Source: Gammaproteobacteria bacterium
Lineage (GTDB): Bacteria > Pseudomonadota > Gammaproteobacteria > Steroidobacterales > Foliamicaceae
NCBI GenBank assembly: GCA_965115835.1
Contig: OZ220471.1
Coordinates: 1,292,401 to 1,356,400 of the forward strand
Reading direction: 5' to 3'
DNA length: 64,000 nucleotides
The position numbers and the translations under genes are program-made. Below, one piece after another: positions 49,814 to 57,781 of this stretch. How positions within the stretch are numbered: the first letter of the stretch is position 1; every line of letters starts with the position of its first letter. The notes under the pieces are model-generated. The model was not told the DNA's origin and did not search any database. It saw nothing but the letters and a program-made list of their open reading frames with translations.

Positions 49814-51325
49814 TGGCGAAGAAGCTCCCGGCCAGCGCGCCTGCAATCAATACAACACCTGCACCCCGCGCTCCTCCAGCGCCGGGATGTGAATGCTCAG
49901 GGCATCCGGGTCCAGCGGGTTATCGCGCAGGTCCAGATACTCCAGGGCGGGCAATTCCGCCAGCGCCGCAATGTCCGCTACCTGATTCTGGCCGAGACTC
50001 AGCAACTCCAGCTTCTGCAACCCGGATAGCGCCGAAACATCCGCAACATCGTTGCCGTCCAGCACCAGCTGCTCCAGTTCCGCCAGCTGCAACAGCGGCG
50101 TCAGGTTGGAAATCTTGTTCCGGGCCAGAAACAGCTTGGTCAGGCTGGAAAGGGAAGAAAGCGCCGAAACATCCGAAATGCTGTTGTCGTCCAGCACCAG
50201 TTGCCTGAGCGCCGCCAATTGCGACAGCGGCGTCAGGTCGGAAACCGCGTTCCTCGCCAGAAACAGCTTGGTCAAGCCGGAGAAAGAAGAAAGCGGCGAC
50301 AGGTTCGAAATGCCGTTGCCGTCCAGGAACAACGTTTCGATCTGCGTCAGATTGGCCAGCGCGCCGATGTCCACCAACCCGCAGTCCCTCAGGTACAGGC
50401 CGCGAAGTTGTCGGAAGCCGGTGGACGGGAACCCGGAGAGCGGATTGCCGTTGAGATTCAGCGAGGCCAGACGGGGCAATGCCGCCAGCGCGGACACATC
50501 CGTGATCCGATTGTCGTTGAGCGACAGGCTGCGGAGCGTGGTCAGATCGGCCAGCAGCGAGACATCCTCAATTTGGTTGGCGCCCAGATGCAAGAAGGAG
50601 AGCTTGAGCAGAGCTTGCAGGGGCGACAGATCGGTAATCCCGTTGCCCGAGAGCGACAGCGTGCGCAATTCGGCGAACGCCGAAAGCAGGCTGAAGTCCG
50701 TAACGCCGATGTGGTCAAGACGCAGCGTCTCCAGCATTGTCAATCCTGACAGCGGCGACAGGTCCACAATCTGGCGGTTCGACGACAAGGTCAGGGTTTC
50801 GAGGCGGATCAGGCCGGCAAGCGGGGTGAGGTCCGAAGCGCCGATGCCGTCAAGACGCAGCGTCTCCAGCAGGATCAGTTCCGAAAGCGGCGACAGGTCC
50901 ACAATCTGCCGGTTCCACGACAAGTTCAGGGTTTTGAGACGAACCAGACCAACAAGCGGCGTGAGATCCGAAACGCCGGTGCGGTCAAGACGCAGCGTCT
51001 CCAGCAGCGCCAATCCCGAAAGCGGCGTGAGATCCATGATCCGGCGGTTCGACGACAAGTCCAGATTGCCGAGACGGGTCAGGCCGACAAGCGGCGTGAG
51101 ATCCGAAATCCGGTTGCCGCTCAAGTTCAGCGACTTCAGGCTCAAGGCTATTTCCAGACCGGTGAGGTCGGCCACGCCCGAACGGGTCGCATTCAGCCCT
51201 GACAGCAGCGCAACTTCCGTCTTGTTGCTGCGCGTAAGGTCGGTCGCGCCCAAAGCCCGGGCCACTACCCTTGCGAGACCGGCGTCCGGGAAGGACACGC
51301 CACCGCCACCGACAACCTCGACAAC
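49814..51325. repeat. dispersed repeat copy B (~1.51 kb) of the LRR cassette
   Basis: It is the partner of 7501..9080. Both proteins share VSFPDAGLARVV...ALGATDL at the cassette start and DLRDNPLD.DAL..HIPALEERGVQVLY at the end. Confidence 0.85.
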
Positions 51326-53872
51326 ATCCCCGACGCTCCCAACATCACCGCCGTCGCCATCATCGGTAGGGGCGGAGGGAGACCGGGTCGTGTCCGTCAC
51401 CGTCACGGTGACATTATCGATTCTGAGCGACGAGCCATAGTTGCTGTCGCTGCTGGCCGATGTGTGCGTCAGGGTCGCGGTGTCGTTGGTCCTGTCGTCA
51501 TCGGTTCCGGCGTTGACCGTCACCGTCTGCGCAGTGCCATAGTTGCCCGGCGTGAACGTCAGCGGCGAACCGGTCACCGTCACCTCGCCCGATTGGCCGC
51601 CCACCGTCACCGTCACGTTCGCCGCCGGCGCCGTGTTCAGATTCACGGCGTACGTGCCGCTGCTGCCTTCATTGATCGTCAGCGCGGTCGGCGCCACCAC
51701 CACGCGTGGAGTGCTCGCCGCAAACGGCGTCGCCGTCACCACATCCGACCAGGGGCCGTTGTTGCCGGCCCCCTGGCTGGCCCGGATGCGAAATTCGTAC
51801 GCCGTGCCGGCAGTCAGGCCGGTGATCGTCCGGCTCGTGGCGGCGCCGGTTCCCGCAACGAATGTCGCCGAGGCGGGCCAGGCGCCGCCGCTCGCCCTGC
51901 GCTGGTGGCCCCAGCGGGCGATGCGCTGGTTCGGCTGGGCGTCCCAGCTCAGGGTGACCTGACCCACGCCTGCCTCCGCGCTCAGCCCGGACGGCTTCGA
52001 CGGAACACCCTTCCAGACCATGGTGACCGTGGCCTGGCTCGACGCCACGCCGGCGCCGTTGGCGTTCACTGCCCGCACCTTGAAGGCATAGGCCGTCCCG
52101 GTGCTCAGGCCTGTCACCGTGTGGGTGATGGTCGTGGCGCTCGAACCCGGCACATTCCTCCATGCGCCGTCCTGCGAATACCGCCACCTGGTAATGCTGG
52201 CGTCGTTCGGATTGGTCCAGGACAGTACCGCCTGTCCGTTGCCGCTGCCCTGGACGGCGGTAAAGCCCGTCGGCTTGGCGGGGCGGGTCGAGCTGCCGGC
52301 CTCATCGTCGTCCCTGATCGTCAGGGTGAGCCTGCCGGTGGCCCAGCCGTCCTCGTAGCCGATGAGGTTGATCGTCTCGTCCGGTTCGTCCCGGGTATCG
52401 CCGAGTATGCGGACGACCTTCGTGCCCTGGGTCTGGCCTTCGGCGATAGGGACAATAACCCCATTCGGGAGGCACACGTCCGTGTCCTTCGGGAGCAGGG
52501 GCGGGTCGCAGGGGTCACGCCCCTTGCCGGAGGCAGTGGCTGTGCCAATGTCGCTGGGGTAACCCAGCGACACCGAGAAGTTCGTCGGCGCAGGCTCGCT
52601 GAGGGTGAAGGTGATGGTGACATCCGTCGAGCCGGAATCGCCCTCGGTGATCGTGGCCGACGGGGACGCCGACAACGTAATCGTCTTCTTGGGACTGGCG
52701 GCCTTCTCCGTCACGGTGACCGTGGTGGAGGTCGTGCCGGCCACGGCAGTGCCGTCACGGCCCTTCCAGCTCCAGGTGACGGTATGCGCGCCCACGCCCA
52801 GCGTGGCGCAGGGAAACAGATTGACGCCGAGGCCGGTCGTAATGCCGGCAGGCGCCTGCGTGATCGCGACGCGGTTATTCCCCTCGAGGTTCGCAAGCCG
52901 GTTAATGTACGAGTTTCCCCCGGTGCGTTGTTGTAGCCAGACGAGATTATCATTCCCCCTGACCTGCTTGACCGACAGCAGGTTGAAGCACACCAGCGTC
53001 GTCGCATCGGCCGACCCGACCGTGACGGTTTTATCCGGATCGGAGGTCAGCGTCGGGGTCGACCCCCGCGGCACGGCGCTGACCCAGCCAAGGTTGTGGA
53101 TCACGGAATGAGCGTGGGCGCCGCCCCCGCCGCTCATATACCGAATAGCGATATTGTAGGTCCTTCCGTTAACAAGATTTTCAATGTCAGCTGAGCGGGC
53201 GGCAGTATAGTCTGCAAGCTGTTTCCATGGGCCGCCGCCTGTTCCCTCAAAAGTCTGATGCTCCCAGTGACTGCCGACTTGACTACCGTGATAGGCCCAG
53301 CGGACCCGTATTTTGCTGTCCAGCCCGGTGGCGGACAAGATGATGAGGTCGTTCGGCACCACCGTGACACGGTTGGAAGTTGCAATATGAATCCCGCCAG
53401 GACGATTCGCTCGCAACTCGATCTGATATATCGCGCCGTTGGTCAGACCGGTTAGCGTCGCTGTGGGAGCCGTCGTCGCCGTTCCGGAAAAGGTTTTAGC
53501 TCCGGATACGCGGTACTGCCAACGAATTTGTCCGGTAATGCCGGTCCAGGTCCAGGACAGGTCGACCTTGCCGTTGCCCGGCGTTGCGGTGAGTGTAATG
53601 GACTGCGCTTGCGCGGTCTGCGGCGCGAGGGCGGCGGCGAGCGCAAGCAGGAAGACGCCGGCGAATGCCGCGTTCAGACGCCGTGGGGTTATCCGGGGGT
53701 ACGCGCTCACTGGCTCAGCCTCGCGCCTGAATTTCAGGGGGGGGGGGGTACAGGCAGGCCATGCGCCAAGTGCGCATGCGGCGCCCCGACCCCGCCCGAA
53801 ATGCCGCGCCAGCCAGCCCATCGCAGCCGACACGGCGCTGTCGCCTTCGAGTCTGTTACCCATCTTCGCCAT
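49847..53872 (-). CDS. giant secreted FN3 / Calx-beta-like / Ig-like repeat protein with a C-terminal LRR array
   Basis: The signal peptide is RRLNAAFAGVFLLALAAALAPQTAQA. Several FN3-like modules are present (for example PAKPTGFTAVQGSGNGQAVLSWTNP...TGTAYAFKVRAVNANG), plus a Calx-beta-like module ending LTIRDDDE, then ~19 LRRs. Candidate starts are ATG 53872 (AGGAGG-type SD 7 nt upstream), GTG 53710 and ATG 53902. Confidence 0.8.
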   Translation of the reverse strand: MAKMGNRLEGDSAVSAAMGWLARHFGRGRGAACALGAWPACTPPPLKFRREAEPVSAYPRITPRRLNAAFAGVFLLALAAALAPQTAQAQSITLTATPGNGKVDLSWTWTGITGQIRWQYRVSGAKTFSGTATTAPTATLTGLTNGAIYQIELRANRPGGIHIATSNRVTVVPNDLIILSATGLDSKIRVRWAYHGSQVGSHWEHQTFEGTGGGPWKQLADYTAARSADIENLVNGRTYNIAIRYMSGGGGAHAHSVIHNLGWVSAVPRGSTPTLTSDPDKTVTVGSADATTLVCFNLLSVKQVRGNDNLVWLQQRTGGNSYINRLANLEGNNRVAITQAPAGITTGLGVNLFPCATLGVGAHTVTWSWKGRDGTAVAGTTSTTVTVTEKAASPKKTITLSASPSATITEGDSGSTDVTITFTLSEPAPTNFSVSLGYPSDIGTATASGKGRDPCDPPLLPKDTDVCLPNGVIVPIAEGQTQGTKVVRILGDTRDEPDETINLIGYEDGWATGRLTLTIRDDDEAGSSTRPAKPTGFTAVQGSGNGQAVLSWTNPNDASITRWRYSQDGAWRNVPGSSATTITHTVTGLSTGTAYAFKVRAVNANGAGVASSQATVTMVWKGVPSKPSGLSAEAGVGQVTLSWDAQPNQRIARWGHQRRASGGAWPASATFVAGTGAATSRTITGLTAGTAYEFRIRASQGAGNNGPWSDVVTATPFAASTPRVVVAPTALTINEGSSGTYAVNLNTAPAANVTVTVGGQSGEVTVTGSPLTFTPGNYGTAQTVTVNAGTDDDRTNDTATLTHTSASSDSNYGSSLRIDNVTVTVTDTTRSPSAPTDDGDGGDVGSVGDVVEVVGGGGVSFPDAGLARVVARALGATDLTRSNKTEVALLSGLNATRSGVADLTGLEIALSLKSLNLSGNRISDLTPLVGLTRLGNLDLSSNRRIMDLTPLSGLALLETLRLDRTGVSDLTPLVGLVRLKTLNLSWNRQIVDLSPLSELILLETLRLDGIGASDLTPLAGLIRLETLTLSSNRQIVDLSPLSGLTMLETLRLDHIGVTDFSLLSAFAELRTLSLSGNGITDLSPLQALLKLSFLHLGANQIEDVSLLADLTTLRSLSLNDNRITDVSALAALPRLASLNLNGNPLSGFPSTGFRQLRGLYLRDCGLVDIGALANLTQIETLFLDGNGISNLSPLSSFSGLTKLFLARNAVSDLTPLSQLAALRQLVLDDNSISDVSALSSLSSLTKLFLARNKISNLTPLLQLAELEQLVLDGNDVADVSALSGLQKLELLSLGQNQVADIAALAELPALEYLDLRDNPLDPDALSIHIPALEERGVQVLY
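50698..51102. repeat. in-frame tandem repeat, 3 x 135 bp inside the giant LRR gene
   Basis: Units start at 50698, 50833 and 50968 and are homologous to the units at 8385..8789. Confidence 0.8.
53737..53748. repeat. homopolymer G12 (C12 on the coding strand) in the 5' region of the giant LRR gene
   Basis: The plus strand reads atttca-GGGGGGGGGGGG-tacagg. This is the longest homopolymer I saw in the window; the next is a C8 at 63966..63973. Confidence 0.95.
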
Positions 53873-53925
53873 GACACCGCCCTCCTGTCTGGAATTTCCC
53901 AATGCCTCGCAGGCGTAAGTTGGAA

Positions 53926-53931
53926 ATTATA
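53926..53931 (-). promoter_or_regulatory. candidate -10 box (TATAAT) upstream of the giant LRR gene
   Basis: The minus strand reads ggttgcggTATAATttcc, 54 nt upstream of ATG 53872, in a locally AT-richer spacer. The -35 match is weak (cTGAag with a 17-nt spacer). Confidence 0.3.
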
Positions 53932-54048
53932 CCGCAACCTGGACATCGCTTCAGCCACACGACGGCAGGAAATGTGGGAGCGGAGGACAAACCAAGGCAA
54001 TTCCGGCAGGGAGCAACACAGTAACTTGCTCCGGCGAGGATATTTGGG

Positions 54049-54861
54049 CTATGCGGCGTCGAGAAAGGCAAGCACTTCTTCGGCAATCGCGCATGCGCCC
54101 TCTTCCATGACGGAGCGGGTCACGTCCCGGCGTTCGACGAAGACGGCGCCGGGAATCGCGCGGGCGGCCTTGCGTGTGTGTTCCGCAAGCACGAATCGGG
54201 TGGCCACGACCAGCGTGGCGTGCCGAATGTCTCGGAACTGCGGCGCGCAATCGTAGGTGAGCGTGGCGTGATAGCCCCAGTTGGCGTGCTCGCCGGCGCG
54301 CAGGAGTTCCACGAAGTGGCCGAAGGCCCGCTCGAACGACATGCCCCCGAGCCGCCGGGTCACCGCGAATTCCCAGGCCGATGCAAGGCTGTTCAGTTTT
54401 TCGGTGTAGCGCACCCCGGCGGTGGATTCGGAATACCGCGCATCCTGCTCCCCGGGAGTGAAATACGGCACGTCGATCAGCGCCATCTTGCGTATCCGGG
54501 CGCGTTCGAGTCGGGCCATCTCCACCGCCAGCAGACAACCGCTGTGAAACCCGAGCAGGTCGAACGGCGCCCCGGCGAGCTCTCCGCAGGCGGCGAGCGC
54601 CTCGTGCATGGCGGCGGCGATTTCCTCCATGGAGAGCATTTTTGCGGGGGAATCCGACCCTCCGTATCCGGGGCAATCCGGGGCGCAGATCACTCGCCGG
54701 TCGCCCAGCAGGGGAGCGATCGTCTCGAAGTAGCGGCCGCTGTAGGGAAAGGGATGCAGGCACACAAGCGCCGGTGCGCCTGCGCCCGGCGCCTTGCCGG
54801 GCGTGTGCAAGCGGAGATGGATCTGGCCCGAACGGGTGGCTGCGTAGCTGCGAATCATCAT
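54049..54861 (-). CDS. alpha/beta-hydrolase-fold protein (paralog of 47893..48831)
   Basis: Motifs are GQIHLRLH, ALVCLHPFPYSG, PDCPGYGGSDSP and LLGFHSGCLLAVEMA. There is no signal peptide. Confidence 0.65.
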   Translation of the reverse strand: MMIRSYAATRSGQIHLRLHTPGKAPGAGAPALVCLHPFPYSGRYFETIAPLLGDRRVICAPDCPGYGGSDSPAKMLSMEEIAAAMHEALAACGELAGAPFDLLGFHSGCLLAVEMARLERARIRKMALIDVPYFTPGEQDARYSESTAGVRYTEKLNSLASAWEFAVTRRLGGMSFERAFGHFVELLRAGEHANWGYHATLTYDCAPQFRDIRHATLVVATRFVLAEHTRKAARAIPGAVFVERRDVTRSVMEEGACAIAEEVLAFLDAA

Positions 54862-54939: not shown

Positions 54940-56406
54940 CTATTCCCGGGCCAGCGCCGGCGCATACGAGAGGTTGGGCTTGCGCGCCGCAAGCACCTCG
55001 TCGGGGCGGCGGACGGGCAGGCGATGAGGCGCTGAAATCACCGCCTCGGGCTCGCTCAGCGCCTTGTCGCGAATCCGGACCATGGCGTCAACCAGGGCGT
55101 CCAGCGCTTCGGGGGACTCCGTTTCAGTGGGCTCGACAAGCAGGCACTCGGGCACCAGCAAGGGGAAATACACCGTGGGCGCATGAAACCCTTCGTCGAG
55201 CATGGCCTTGGCGAAATCGGCCGCGCTCACACCGGTATCTTCGCGCAGGCGTTTCAAACTCACGACGAACTCGTGGCCGGCGCGCCGGGACGGGTACGCC
55301 AGATCGAAGCCTTCCGCTGCGAGCCGGCACGCCAGATAGTTGGCGTTCAGGACCGCATGACCGGACACCCTTTGAAGCCCCTCCCGCCCCAGCATCCTCA
55401 TGTACGCCCAGGCGCGCAGCAACACGCCGATATTCCCGCCGTTGGCGGCCAGACGCCCTATGCTCCGGGGGCAGTCGGTCCGCCAGCGATACCCTCCCTT
55501 GCTCTGCTCCACCACCGGAACGGGAAGAAAGGGCTTGAGCGCAGCCGTCACGCCCACGGCGCCGGCGCCGGGTCCGCCGCCGCCGTGGGGCGTGGAAAAC
55601 GTCTTGTGGAGATTCAGGTGGACGGCGTCGAACCCCATGTCGCCGGGCAATACGCGGCCCAGCAAGGCGTTGAGGTTGGCGCCGTCGTAATACAGCAGCC
55701 CGCCGGCGGTGTGAACGCGCTCCGAGATCTCGAGAATGCGGCGCTCGAAAACGCCCAGGGTGGACGGATTGGTGAGCATGATGCCGGCGGTCCGAGGGCC
55801 CAGCGCGGCGTCCAGCGCCCCAAGGTCGATATCGCCGTCCTTGCCGGTGGCGATCTCGCGAACTTTCATGCCGCACATGGCCGCGGTGGCCGGATTGGTG
55901 CCATGGGCGGCGTCGGGCACGATGATTTCATCGCGGTCATGGTCCCCGCGCGACCGGTGATAGGCCCTGAACATCGCCACGCCGGCAAACTCTCCCTGCG
56001 CTCCCGCCATCGGCGCCAGGGAGACGGCTTCCATGCCCGTCACCCGGGCGAGCATTTCCTGAAGTTCGTGCAGACACTCCAAAAGCCCCTGAGCGGCCGA
56101 ATCGGGGGTGGCCGGATGCATATCCAGAAAGCCCGGCAGCGAGGCCAGGCGGTGGCAGGCCCGCGGGTTGTACTTCATGGTGCAGGAGCCCAGCGGATAG
56201 CTGTTGGTGTCTATGCAGAAGTTGAGTTGCGAAAGGCGCGTGTAGTGGCGCACCGCATCCAGTTCGGAAACCTCCGGCAGGGGCGCGTCCCGCTCCCGGA
56301 TCAGTTCCTCCGGCAGGCCTGCCGGTTGCGGGACAGCGCCTGCCGGCGCCTGCGCCCGCGCCCGCCGGCCCGGGTGCGAAATTTCGAAAATCAGCTTACG
56401 CGGCAT
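54940..56406 (-). CDS. gcvPB: glycine dehydrogenase (decarboxylating) subunit 2
   Basis: Motifs are [12 protein letters not shown] and [18 protein letters not shown] (PLP-Lys region). Confidence 0.9.
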
Positions 56407-57781
56407 GCCGCCCCCTTCCTCCGGGCGAAGGTTGCTCGCGCATTACCCTTTCCATGGCCGAGGCGTAGAACTCGATTTCCTCCGTCGTGCGCATTTCGGT
56501 TGCGCACACCAGCAGCGCATTGCCCAGTTCCGGGTAGTCCGCCGAAACATCGATGCCGCCAAGGATGCCCTCCCCGACCAACGCGGCCAGAACGGGCGCT
56601 ACCGGCCGGTCCAGGCACAGGATATCCTCGTGAAAGAAAGGCGCATCCCAGGCCCGCCGGATCCCGCGGATGGCCGTCAGCGCCTCTGTCAGTTCCGCTG
56701 CCCTTGCGTGGCAGGCCGCCGCCACCCGGCGCAGACCCTGACCGCCCAACAGCGCCATGTACAGCGTGGCCGCGACCACCATCAGACCCTGGTTGGTGCA
56801 GATATTGGAGGTGGCCCGGCTGCGGCGGATGTGCTGCTCGCGCGCCTGCAGGGTCAGCACGTAGGCCGGATCGCCCGCCAAATCGACGGTCCTCCCGGCC
56901 AGACGCCCGGGTATCTGGCGAAGATGGCGGGCCTTGCAGGCCAAAAGCCCCAGGTAGGGGCCGCCGCCGGACATGGGAATACCCAGGGGCTGGCCTTCGC
57001 CACAGACAATATCGGCGCCCCATTCTCCCGGGGGCCGCAGCGCTCCCAGCGCCACAGGGTTGGCGCCCACCACCAGCAGGGCCTGTTCCCGGTCGGCCCT
57101 CGCCCTCCAGGCGCCGAGGTCCGGAAGGCCTCCCAGATAGCTCGGCGTGGCCACGGCGAACGCCGCGAAACCGCCGCCGGGATCCCGGTCCAGCGGCCCG
57201 AAATCGGCCCCGCCATTCGCATCCAGCGGCACTTCCACCAACTCGATCTCCTGTCCTTTCAGCAGCGTTGCCGCCACGGACCGCCAGGCCGGATGCAGCG
57301 ATCGGGCCACCGCAATCCGGCGCGAGGCCGACTGCCGGTTGCAGCGCACCGCCATCAGACAGGCTTCGGCGAAGGCGGTGGCGCCGTCGTACAGCGACGC
57401 ATTGGCGACCTCCATGCCGGTCAGCCCGGCAATCATGGTCTGGTACTCGTAGGTCAGCTGCAGGGAACCCTGGGCGGCTTCCGCCTGGTACGGCGTGTAG
57501 TTGCTGTAAAACTCGCCACGCGAGGCGATGTCCCATACCGCCGCCGGAATGTGATGCTCGTATGCGCCGCCGCCGGCGAAACACACCAGCGGGCGGTTAC
57601 GCCGGGCGCGCTCCCTGGCAATCCGGCCTATTCCGGCTTCGTCCAGCCCGGGAAAAATTTCCGGTGGCTCGGCGCGCAGCAGCGCCGCCGGAATCTCGTC
57701 GTACAGATCGCCCATGGCGCCCGCGCCCAGGCGCCGCAGCATGTCCCGAACCTGCGAGGAGGTGTGCGGAACAAAGGGCAT
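56396..57781 (-). CDS. gcvPA: glycine dehydrogenase (decarboxylating) subunit 1
   Basis: Motifs are [31 protein letters not shown] and [18 protein letters not shown]. Confidence 0.9.

Follow-up and report, generated by a model that had tools for sequence, protein, structure and literature searches.

A poly-C tract of variable length between a leader reading frame and the signal peptide of giant surface-protein genes: a candidate slipped-strand frame switch

The tract and the gene behind it

The window analysed here, a 64-kb stretch (64,000 nt) of contig OZ220471.1, carries on its minus strand the gene of a giant leucine-rich-repeat (LRR) surface protein, with a run of twelve cytosines close to its 5′ end. 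A preliminary description of this DNA had placed the run between an ATG at 53872, preceded by a Shine-Dalgarno (SD) sequence, and the signal peptide of the protein. It had also noted a TATAAT hexamer upstream of that ATG, as well as an in-frame GTG at 53710, with a GAGG of its own, just ahead of the Sec-type signal peptide, and it had proposed a slipped-strand phase switch. Direct reading of the minus strand from 53500 to 54100 bears out each of these features, and the proposal itself is supported by comparative data on homologous 5′ cassettes whose tracts vary in length. The features of the locus, in window coordinates as throughout the text, are as follows.

53949-53954, minus strand: CTGAAG, a weak candidate −35 hexamer with 3/6 consensus matches, 17 nt upstream of the TATAAT
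53926..53931, minus strand: TATAAT hexamer, candidate −10, 53 nt 5′ of ATG 53872
53881..53885, minus strand: Shine-Dalgarno sequence GGAGG, spaced 8 nt from the upstream ATG
53870-53872, minus strand: upstream start codon ATG, in frame with the LRR gene at C12
53749..53872, minus strand: leader open reading frame (ORF), 124 nt from ATG 53872 to the base preceding the tract, peptide MAKMGNRLEGDSAVSAAMGWLARHFGRGRGAACALGAWPAC
53737..53748, minus strand: poly-C tract, the proposed slipped-strand switch, C12 on the coding strand and G12 on the plus strand by direct reading
53711..53736, minus strand: spacer of 26 nt between tract and GTG, holding two TGA stops and the GAGG
53734-53736, minus strand: TGA stop of frame 2, at the tract end
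53719-53722, minus strand: GAGG, weak SD sequence of the GTG, 8 nt upstream of it
53715-53717, minus strand: TGA stop of frame 1, 4 nt ahead of the GTG
53708-53710, minus strand: in-frame GTG start codon, opening a 35-codon Sec-type signal peptide (53606..53710) that ends in AQA and is followed by QS
49847..53710, minus strand: body of the giant surface-protein gene, 1287 aa from the GTG and 1341 aa from the ATG (ORF list, Pfam and NCBIfam scans)

The signal peptide directly after GTG 53710 reads VSAYPRITPRRLNAAFAGVFLLALAAALAPQTAQA and is followed by QS. The protein comprises N-terminal fn3-like repeats, two Pfam fn3 domains, and a C-terminal internalin-like LRR array (Pfam and NCBIfam scans). 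From ATG 53872, the tract is read as ACC CCC CCC CCC CTG. Simulated tracts of C9, C12, and C15 give fusions of 1340-1342 aa, those of C10, C13, and C16 end the leader ORF at the TGA 53717-53715, 4 nt before the GTG, and those of C11 and C14 end it at the TGA 53736-53734, at the end of the tract. This reproduces the stops formerly worked out by hand for C11 and C13, together with the statement that the present length, plus or minus 3 nt, is alone in fusing the upstream start to the gene. Both this simulation from C9 to C16 and the frame states of 17 copies described below indicate a repeat within sequence predicted to be translated, where length changes other than multiples of three alter the product. 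The tract of the window, at C12 and uninterrupted, also lies within the length range associated with slippage (~8 or more G/C).

The tract is the sole G/C run longer than 8 in the 64-kb window, for which ~0.12 runs of at least 12 would be expected. Runs of at least 7 G/C number only 4 (a C8 at 63966 among them), where base composition predicts ~33; homopolymers are thus avoided elsewhere in this genome, and the tract clearly stands out. No second copy of the cassette was found in the window, and the LRR paralogue at 7534-9945, which had been described as lacking such a tract, indeed has its own ATG and signal peptide, with neither tract nor cassette.

Homologous cassettes in related genomes

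A homology search with the N-terminal 560 aa of the protein returned no close orthologue, but proteins that match the leader/signal-peptide region with their N-termini, and look-ups with the exact hydrolase, LRR, and GcvP2 proteins returned no other assembly of the window genome. The comparison is thus one between paralogues and between different species, each related contig being seen in one assembly. The DNA pattern used to scan a genome collection combined two invariant blocks that follow the tract but did not require the tract itself; it matched 17 times, in 16 loci, with one match due to chance (L005). This pattern forced GGCTGAGCC and an Ala-rich block, so the invariance of both in the copies derived from it is a matter of ascertainment; L020, L021, and L022 were found by protein homology alone, outside the DNA pattern. 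A second protein search with the consensus module brought only two more proteins, and a metagenome scan with the cassette pattern a single chance hit (L019, the same sequence as L005). Altogether, 19 homologous copies in related metagenome-assembled genomes (MAGs) and that of the window make up 20 cassette copies (window, L001-L004, L006, L007, L009-L012 with two in L011, L014-L018, and L020-L022). The loci of the genome scan come from five assemblies labelled Alphaproteobacteria bacterium and one labelled Vicinamibacteria, all of which appear, judging by their multi-megabase contigs, to have been assembled from long metagenomic reads; no description of these MAGs came up in literature searches.

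In the DNA of the relatives, the 5′ order is shared: SD-ATG, leader, poly-C, ~28 nt, GTG, and signal peptide. The poly-C tract stands at the identical position in 20/20 copies, at a distance of 26-30 nt from the GTG, and its length, which the comparison with related genomes shows not to be fixed, is distributed as follows.

C9: L007
C10: L014
C11: L001, L003, L009
C11 followed by an interrupting G: L018
C12: L016, window
C13: L006
C15: L010
C16: L002
C18: L004, L017
C19: L011b, L015
C22: L012
C33: L011a
C37: L020
C13, a 39-nt insert, and C10: L021 (1123-1184)
C7TC4: L022, a truncated gene fragment

Uninterrupted tracts of 9-37 nt are present in 17/20 copies, with one of the remaining tracts split and two interrupted. 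Away from the tract, the spacer and the signal-peptide region are nearly free of indels, apart from 3 nt inserted in the copy of the window and changes of 2 nt, next to the tract, in L017 and L018. Repeat length is therefore polymorphic between conserved flanks, among paralogues and species. At the nucleotide level, the window copy matches the MAG family with 79% identity over 136 nt (BLAST, E = 6e-28), in an alignment that opens 4 nt ahead of the tract and takes in the signal peptide; this defines a conserved module of tract, spacer, GTG, and signal peptide. The arrangement TGA-N4-GTG is present in 20/20 copies and survives in L021 and L022, the two copies from outside the DNA pattern in which neighbouring bases have changed. 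In L021, both C13 and C10 are read through by the leader ORF, which ends at the TGA of this arrangement.

The frame of the SD-bearing upstream start relative to the GTG and signal peptide was tabulated for 17 copies. The leader is fused to the gene in five of them (window, L001, L003, L006, and L009), a share of about one third, as expected for a free frame. Its stop is the TGA of TGA-N4-GTG in 3/17 (L004, L011a, and L016), lies 31 nt inside the signal-peptide coding region in 8/17, and falls at −20 in the interrupted L018 (1/17); L021, found after the table was made, brings the copies in the TGA-stop frame to 4/20. Out-of-frame leader ORFs starting at the SD-ATG span ~45-60 codons. Behind the GTG, long ORFs of 431 to more than 2300 aa are open in all three frame states, as would be expected if OFF states were transient; in 3/17 copies, only a short fragment of 121-204 aa follows. 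The downstream products are rich in fn3, with autotransporter (at least one autotransporter beta-domain), PKD, and Calx-beta domains, and bear LRRs in the window. How the frame bears on annotation can be seen in L001 (C11, ATG in frame), called as one ORF of 823 aa, and L002 (C16, out of frame), split by the gene caller into an ORF of 57 aa and a gene of 431 aa that begins at the GTG. Locus L011 holds two cassettes 1.35 kb apart, at 3844-3876 (C33, followed by a 138-aa ORF) and 5213-5231 (C19, followed by a gene of more than 900 aa), and the ORFs behind the GTG of L015 (121 aa) and L016 (204 aa) are also short; those of L011a, L015, and L016 may be gene fragments or silent cassette copies.

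Upstream of the tract, three non-homologous leader types are found (that of the window, that of the main family, and that of L006 and L010), each of which brings its own SD sequence and start codon and an ORF that reads into the tract. GGGAGGA precedes the ATG in all copies of the main family, L006 and L010 have independent pairs of SD sequence and start, and the window leader has no significant BLAST similarity to the MAG leaders. Main-family leaders measure 96, 90, 84, and 42 nt, with independent indels of 6, 6, 6, and 54 nt, all of them multiples of three. From the SD/ATG, the open frame, and these indels we infer that the leader is translated; its peptide sequence looks unconstrained. Leaders of the main family (e.g., L004 898-1008) contain ATG codons in two frames, and in L004, L011b, L012, L015, and L016 an ATG of the second frame, devoid of an SD sequence, would be fused or would stop at the TGA where the SD-ATG frame does not. 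Repeat loci with multiple ATG codons exist, such as lic1 of H. influenzae, of which these leaders are reminiscent.

The copies are mosaic. L011b and L012 are ~98% identical upstream of the tract and ~78% downstream, and the reverse holds for L003 and L018 (64% upstream and 99% downstream), a pattern implying that recombination or gene conversion has taken place inside the conserved 5′ cassette. Breakpoints of leader swaps sit at the tract in L006, L010, L020, L021, and the window, whereas L011b and L012 break at the 3′ end of the signal peptide, so that the tract is not the only junction. In L020, an ORF of 129 aa at 2523-2972, whose C-terminus looks transposase-like by eye, ends 25 nt before the C37 tract; this insertion, of the insertion-sequence (IS) type, abuts the tract and replaces the usual promoter and leader. 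L006 and L010 (OZ220470.1) belong to the MAG labelled Vicinamibacteria (Acidobacteriota), and differ in their leaders from the alphaproteobacterial copies, to which they are almost identical in the signal-peptide module; this placement points to mis-binning, mislabelling, or horizontal transfer. The cassette genes of L001 and L002 lie among TrwC relaxase, integrase, transposase, and SlipAM genes, suggesting a mobile-element context. The window copy, by contrast, follows a chromosomal gcvP1-gcvP2-hydrolase cluster: its upstream neighbour on the minus strand (54049-54861) encodes an alpha/beta-hydrolase of 270 aa, located in turn after gcvP1 and gcvP2. Despite the presence of these two genes (54940-57781), Rfam detected no glycine riboswitch in the window, and the Rfam scan (gathering threshold) and tRNA scan of the whole 64 kb returned no matches.

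Long C runs also occur outside the cassettes, and the related MAG lineage seems to carry many long G/C homopolymers, compared with one in the window. In L004, a C15 at 5038-5052 stands between the hexamers TTGACT and TATTGT (gtgtgTTGACTtca-C15-ggTATTGTcaagg) and resembles a promoter with the tract as its spacer, the nearest downstream plus-strand ORF of at least 100 aa being ~270 nt off. A perfect palindrome, G15-CTAG-C16 with inverted ttcact/agtgaa flanks, is located at 2016-2050 of L011, ~1.8 kb upstream of a cassette, and shorter runs are C11 at 7504-7514 of L007 and C9 at 10255-10263 of L002 (equal to L013 7621-7629).

In the MAG cassettes, homology between paralogues begins just 5′ of TTGAAA-N17-TATGGG/TATAGT, ~70 nt before the SD-ATG. 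A strict scan of 53600-54150 of the window, with a scanner that covers the sigma-70 consensus only, called no site, the surroundings of the tract and the TATAAT included; the latter is missed because its −35 agrees with the consensus at 3/6 positions only. No terminator-like site was found between the tract and the signal peptide, and the RNA folds of five segments from tract to signal peptide were no more stable than shuffles (z +0.06 to +1.5). A GGGCGC...GCGCCC stem around the GTG, noticed by eye, was considered as a conserved RNA structure and rejected, as the folds are no better than those of shuffled sequences.

A frame switch weighed against its rivals

Taken together, these data suggest that the C12 homopolymer is probably hypermutable and serves to switch the frame of translation near the start of a gene for a giant secreted or surface protein. 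Transcription would probably start upstream of the SD-ATG, and ribosomes would load at the strong SD-ATG 53872 and translate a short, unconstrained leader into the tract. Slipped-strand mispairing at replication would alter the tract length, and with it the frame in which ribosomes leave the tract. In one frame (C12 here), the leader would be fused to the frame of the GTG and signal peptide, the whole protein being made from the strong start and the leader being removed together with the signal peptide by cleavage between AQA and Q, which would explain why the leader sequence is free. In the other two frames, the leader ORF would reach a stop either at the TGA preceding the GTG by 4 nt or in its vicinity, leaving the gene dependent on the weak GTG through reinitiation or occlusion, with low or no expression. 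Placed on a multigene family of fn3-rich, adhesin-like proteins, the module of tract, GTG, and signal peptide could give each cell lineage a stochastic, heritable, and reversible subset of them. The rate of slippage, the promoter, the frame that is ON (the fusion or the stop 4 nt before the GTG), and switching within populations are points that we infer in this scheme. Polyproline stalling, Rho-dependent polarity on the 4-kb gene left untranslated in OFF states, and slippage of RNA polymerase on the C run are candidate modifiers. The wide range of tract lengths (9-37) fits a modulo-3 rule better than the optimum of a promoter spacer, and giant products with fn3, LRR, autotransporter, PKD, and Calx-beta domains are classic targets of phase variation, which supports the switch.

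Several observations weigh against a frame switch. Variation in tract length is seen among paralogues and species only, and not at one locus in a population; none of the pairs of cassette copies has near-identical flanks on both sides, so that the mutation rate of the tract cannot be scaled to the substitution rate. Homopolymer lengths, especially those of at least 15, may be off by one base or more in MAGs, which would scramble the frame table, although the existence and variability of the tracts are not in doubt, and the fact that all tracts of at least 15 are non-fused is unexplained. Leader substitutions are spread 11/10/10 over the codon positions, with no excess at the third, and the GC-phase of the leader is mixed; since neither test gives support, the case for leader translation consists solely of the SD sequence, the start codon, and the 3n indels. 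The promoter is a candidate at the level of the consensus only. It is also uncommon for a Sec signal peptide to begin 55-65 residues into a protein and after a polyproline stretch, and when the form initiated at the ATG was scanned with Pfam, only LRR, fn3, and related matches came back, with no motif of the type found in the extended signal peptide region (ESPR).

A serious alternative, though unlikely on balance, is that the leader acts as an upstream ORF coupled to the gene. The protein would then always start at the GTG, with its 35-aa signal peptide, and tract length would set the leader stop: termination at the TGA 4 nt before the GTG would permit reinitiation (ON), a stop at +31 or at the tract end would cause occlusion or poor coupling (OFF or low), and the fused frame would yield an aberrant precursor, with polyproline stalling possibly adding a length-dependent effect. 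That the GTG lies exactly where a normal signal peptide should begin in 20/20 copies, and that TGA-N4-GTG is retained in all of them, L021 and L022 with their changed neighbours included, agrees with such a coupling, as does the unconstrained leader, a feature of many regulatory leader peptides; in S. gallolyticus pil1, a simple sequence repeat (SSR) in a leader peptide sets the stop position and downstream expression (PMC3894217). However, the SD sequence of the GTG is weak (GGGG or GAGG), only 4/20 copies are in the TGA-stop frame, and the conservation of the TGA is partly ascertainment, given that the pattern required GGCTGAGCC; nor was a hairpin or terminator found that translation of the leader could open, the folds equalling shuffles and the terminator scan being empty. 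Less probable still is a transcriptional switch, in which the tract would be a promoter spacer, or set the spacing between activator and promoter, and its length would tune initiation, the GTG always being the start. The homology conserved between the window and the MAGs begins at the tract, the GTG 26-30 nt downstream would leave a feasible short 5′ untranslated region, weak hexamers flank the tract by eye (TTGTAC/CTGTAC before it, AAGAGT/GAAATT after it), and the C15 of L004 between TTGACT and TATTGT suggests that promoter-spacer tracts may exist in the lineage. Nevertheless, those hexamers match the consensus at 3/6 positions, and the upstream one is absent in L006, L010, and L020, while the strict promoter scan is empty around the tract and the promoter-like motif with better conservation is found ~200 nt further upstream, where the cassette begins. 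A range of 9-37 lies far beyond a workable spacer window, and leaders with an SD sequence and start occur in all three leader types.

It is equally improbable that no switch exists, and that the tract is a neutral hotspot of mutation or recombination, or partly an assembly artefact, ahead of a protein made constitutively from the GTG. Breakpoints do coincide with the tract (the leaders of L006 and L010, the IS-type end 25 nt off in L020, the 39-nt insert of L021, and the window), copies are mosaic between their upstream and downstream parts, and assemblies that are apparently long-read may mis-size homopolymers. Long homopolymers also cause transcriptional slippage, and slippage of RNA polymerase on the C run could blur any effect of frame. 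Point mutation would soon interrupt an unselected run, however, and the tracts are uninterrupted over 9-37 nt in 17/20 copies, in several species and a diverged lineage; moreover, the window genome otherwise avoids homopolymers, and leaders with an SD start whose ORF enters the tract are found again in unrelated sequence. Of the two tracts with an interruption, one, the C7TC4, sits in a truncated gene fragment, which counts in favor of the frame switch.

Beyond the frame switch itself, a broader proposal is more tentative, and its correctness doubtful: poly-C, ~28 nt, TGA-N4-GTG, and signal peptide might form a portable "switch-and-secrete" module that recombines onto different leaders, each bringing an SD sequence and a start codon, and onto different giant adhesin bodies, with the tract, a long G run on the opposite strand, as a possible breakpoint. 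Its three states (fusion to a strong start, termination-reinitiation at the GTG, and occlusion) may be modulated by polyproline stalling in proportion to tract length, and it would represent the first multigene contingency system in uncultured, possibly host-associated Alphaproteobacteria, where it would govern surface proteins of eukaryotic-like (LRR/fn3) type.

Comparison with known systems

Slipped-strand contingency loci are textbook knowledge in a few host-adapted pathogens, but few records of them exist for uncultured bacteria from the environment or from symbioses. The module described here is carried by at least 20 genes, found in five or more alphaproteobacterial MAG species and in the more diverged lineage of the window, and its sharing would imply stochastic, heritable variation of the cell surface in these organisms. 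In practice, gene callers split or extend these genes according to tract length (as with L001 and L002), and homopolymer errors in long reads will flip their apparent state. The layout also offers a clean system in which to ask if fusion, reinitiation, or occlusion allows a leader ORF under the control of a repeat to set three levels of expression.

Homopolymer contingency loci are exemplified by pilC of Neisseria and the poly-G genes of Campylobacter. In addition, nanH3 from Gardnerella holds a C8-14 tract ~100 nt from the start, adjoining the signal peptide, whose length is heterogeneous in clones (10.1101/2020.09.16.300947), and badE from the alphaproteobacterium Bartonella carries A9/G9 SSRs right after the start codon (PMC11466379). 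As in these loci, the cassettes bear a long mononucleotide run within the first ~150 nt of the translated adhesin or surface-protein gene, where a change of one nucleotide shifts the frame, and lengths differ between related copies. Unlike in those loci, both the signal peptide and an in-frame alternative GTG follow the tract, whose out-of-frame states lead to a short leader peptide beside a potential restart rather than to a truncated protein; the module is common to at least 20 genes, with lengths of up to 33-37, and is known here from sequence alone. The preliminary description had called the layout the classic one of contingency loci for surface proteins, which holds for a tract in a surface-protein gene, but not quite for its position ahead of both the signal peptide and the alternative GTG.

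A parallel for the leader is found in the pil1/pil3 switch from S. gallolyticus, where the leader ORF of pil1 holds GCAGA pentanucleotide repeats and attenuation proceeds through an intrinsic terminator hairpin that has to be melted by the ribosome (PMC3894217). Like pil1, the cassettes hold an SSR in a short upstream ORF with its own ribosome-binding site, repeat number sets the leader stop, and the leader sequence is unimportant. Unlike pil1, they have a homopolymer as the repeat and a frame that fuses the leader to the gene, and the scans for a terminator or a stable hairpin found none.

Homopolymers in promoter spacers constitute another type of switch, as in the poly-C of Bordetella fim and in porA and opc of N. 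meningitidis. The cassettes share with these a poly-C/G run upstream of the functional start of a surface gene, on several members of a gene family. However, their tract lies ~200 nt downstream of the best promoter-like motif, with no convincing −35/−10 flanks, and a range of 9-37 is incompatible with a spacer optimum. Giant adhesins of the autotransporter and two-partner secretion (TPS) types hold ESPRs, that is, extended signal peptides. If the fused frame is functional, the window protein would resemble them in having a cleaved N-terminal region of ~80-90 aa before a giant adhesin, although it differs in that there is no ESPR motif or Pfam match and in that the extension is unconserved and out of frame in most copies. 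In H. pylori, a homopolymer in the tlpB mRNA leader is targeted by the trans-acting small RNA (sRNA) RepG (PMC8295292); for an sRNA of this type, Rfam was empty in the window, and no search aimed at G-rich sRNAs was made.

Literature searches found no description of this module, nor of phase variation in LRR/fn3 "eukaryotic-like" symbiont proteins. The general mechanism, a homopolymer contingency at the 5′ end of an adhesin gene, is well known and not new. What sets the present case apart from these systems is that the tract belongs to a leader ORF and precedes both the signal peptide and an alternative start, which has a conserved stop 4 nt upstream of it, and that a conserved, apparently recombining module, with tracts of extreme length, is present on at least 20 giant surface-protein genes from several uncultured species.

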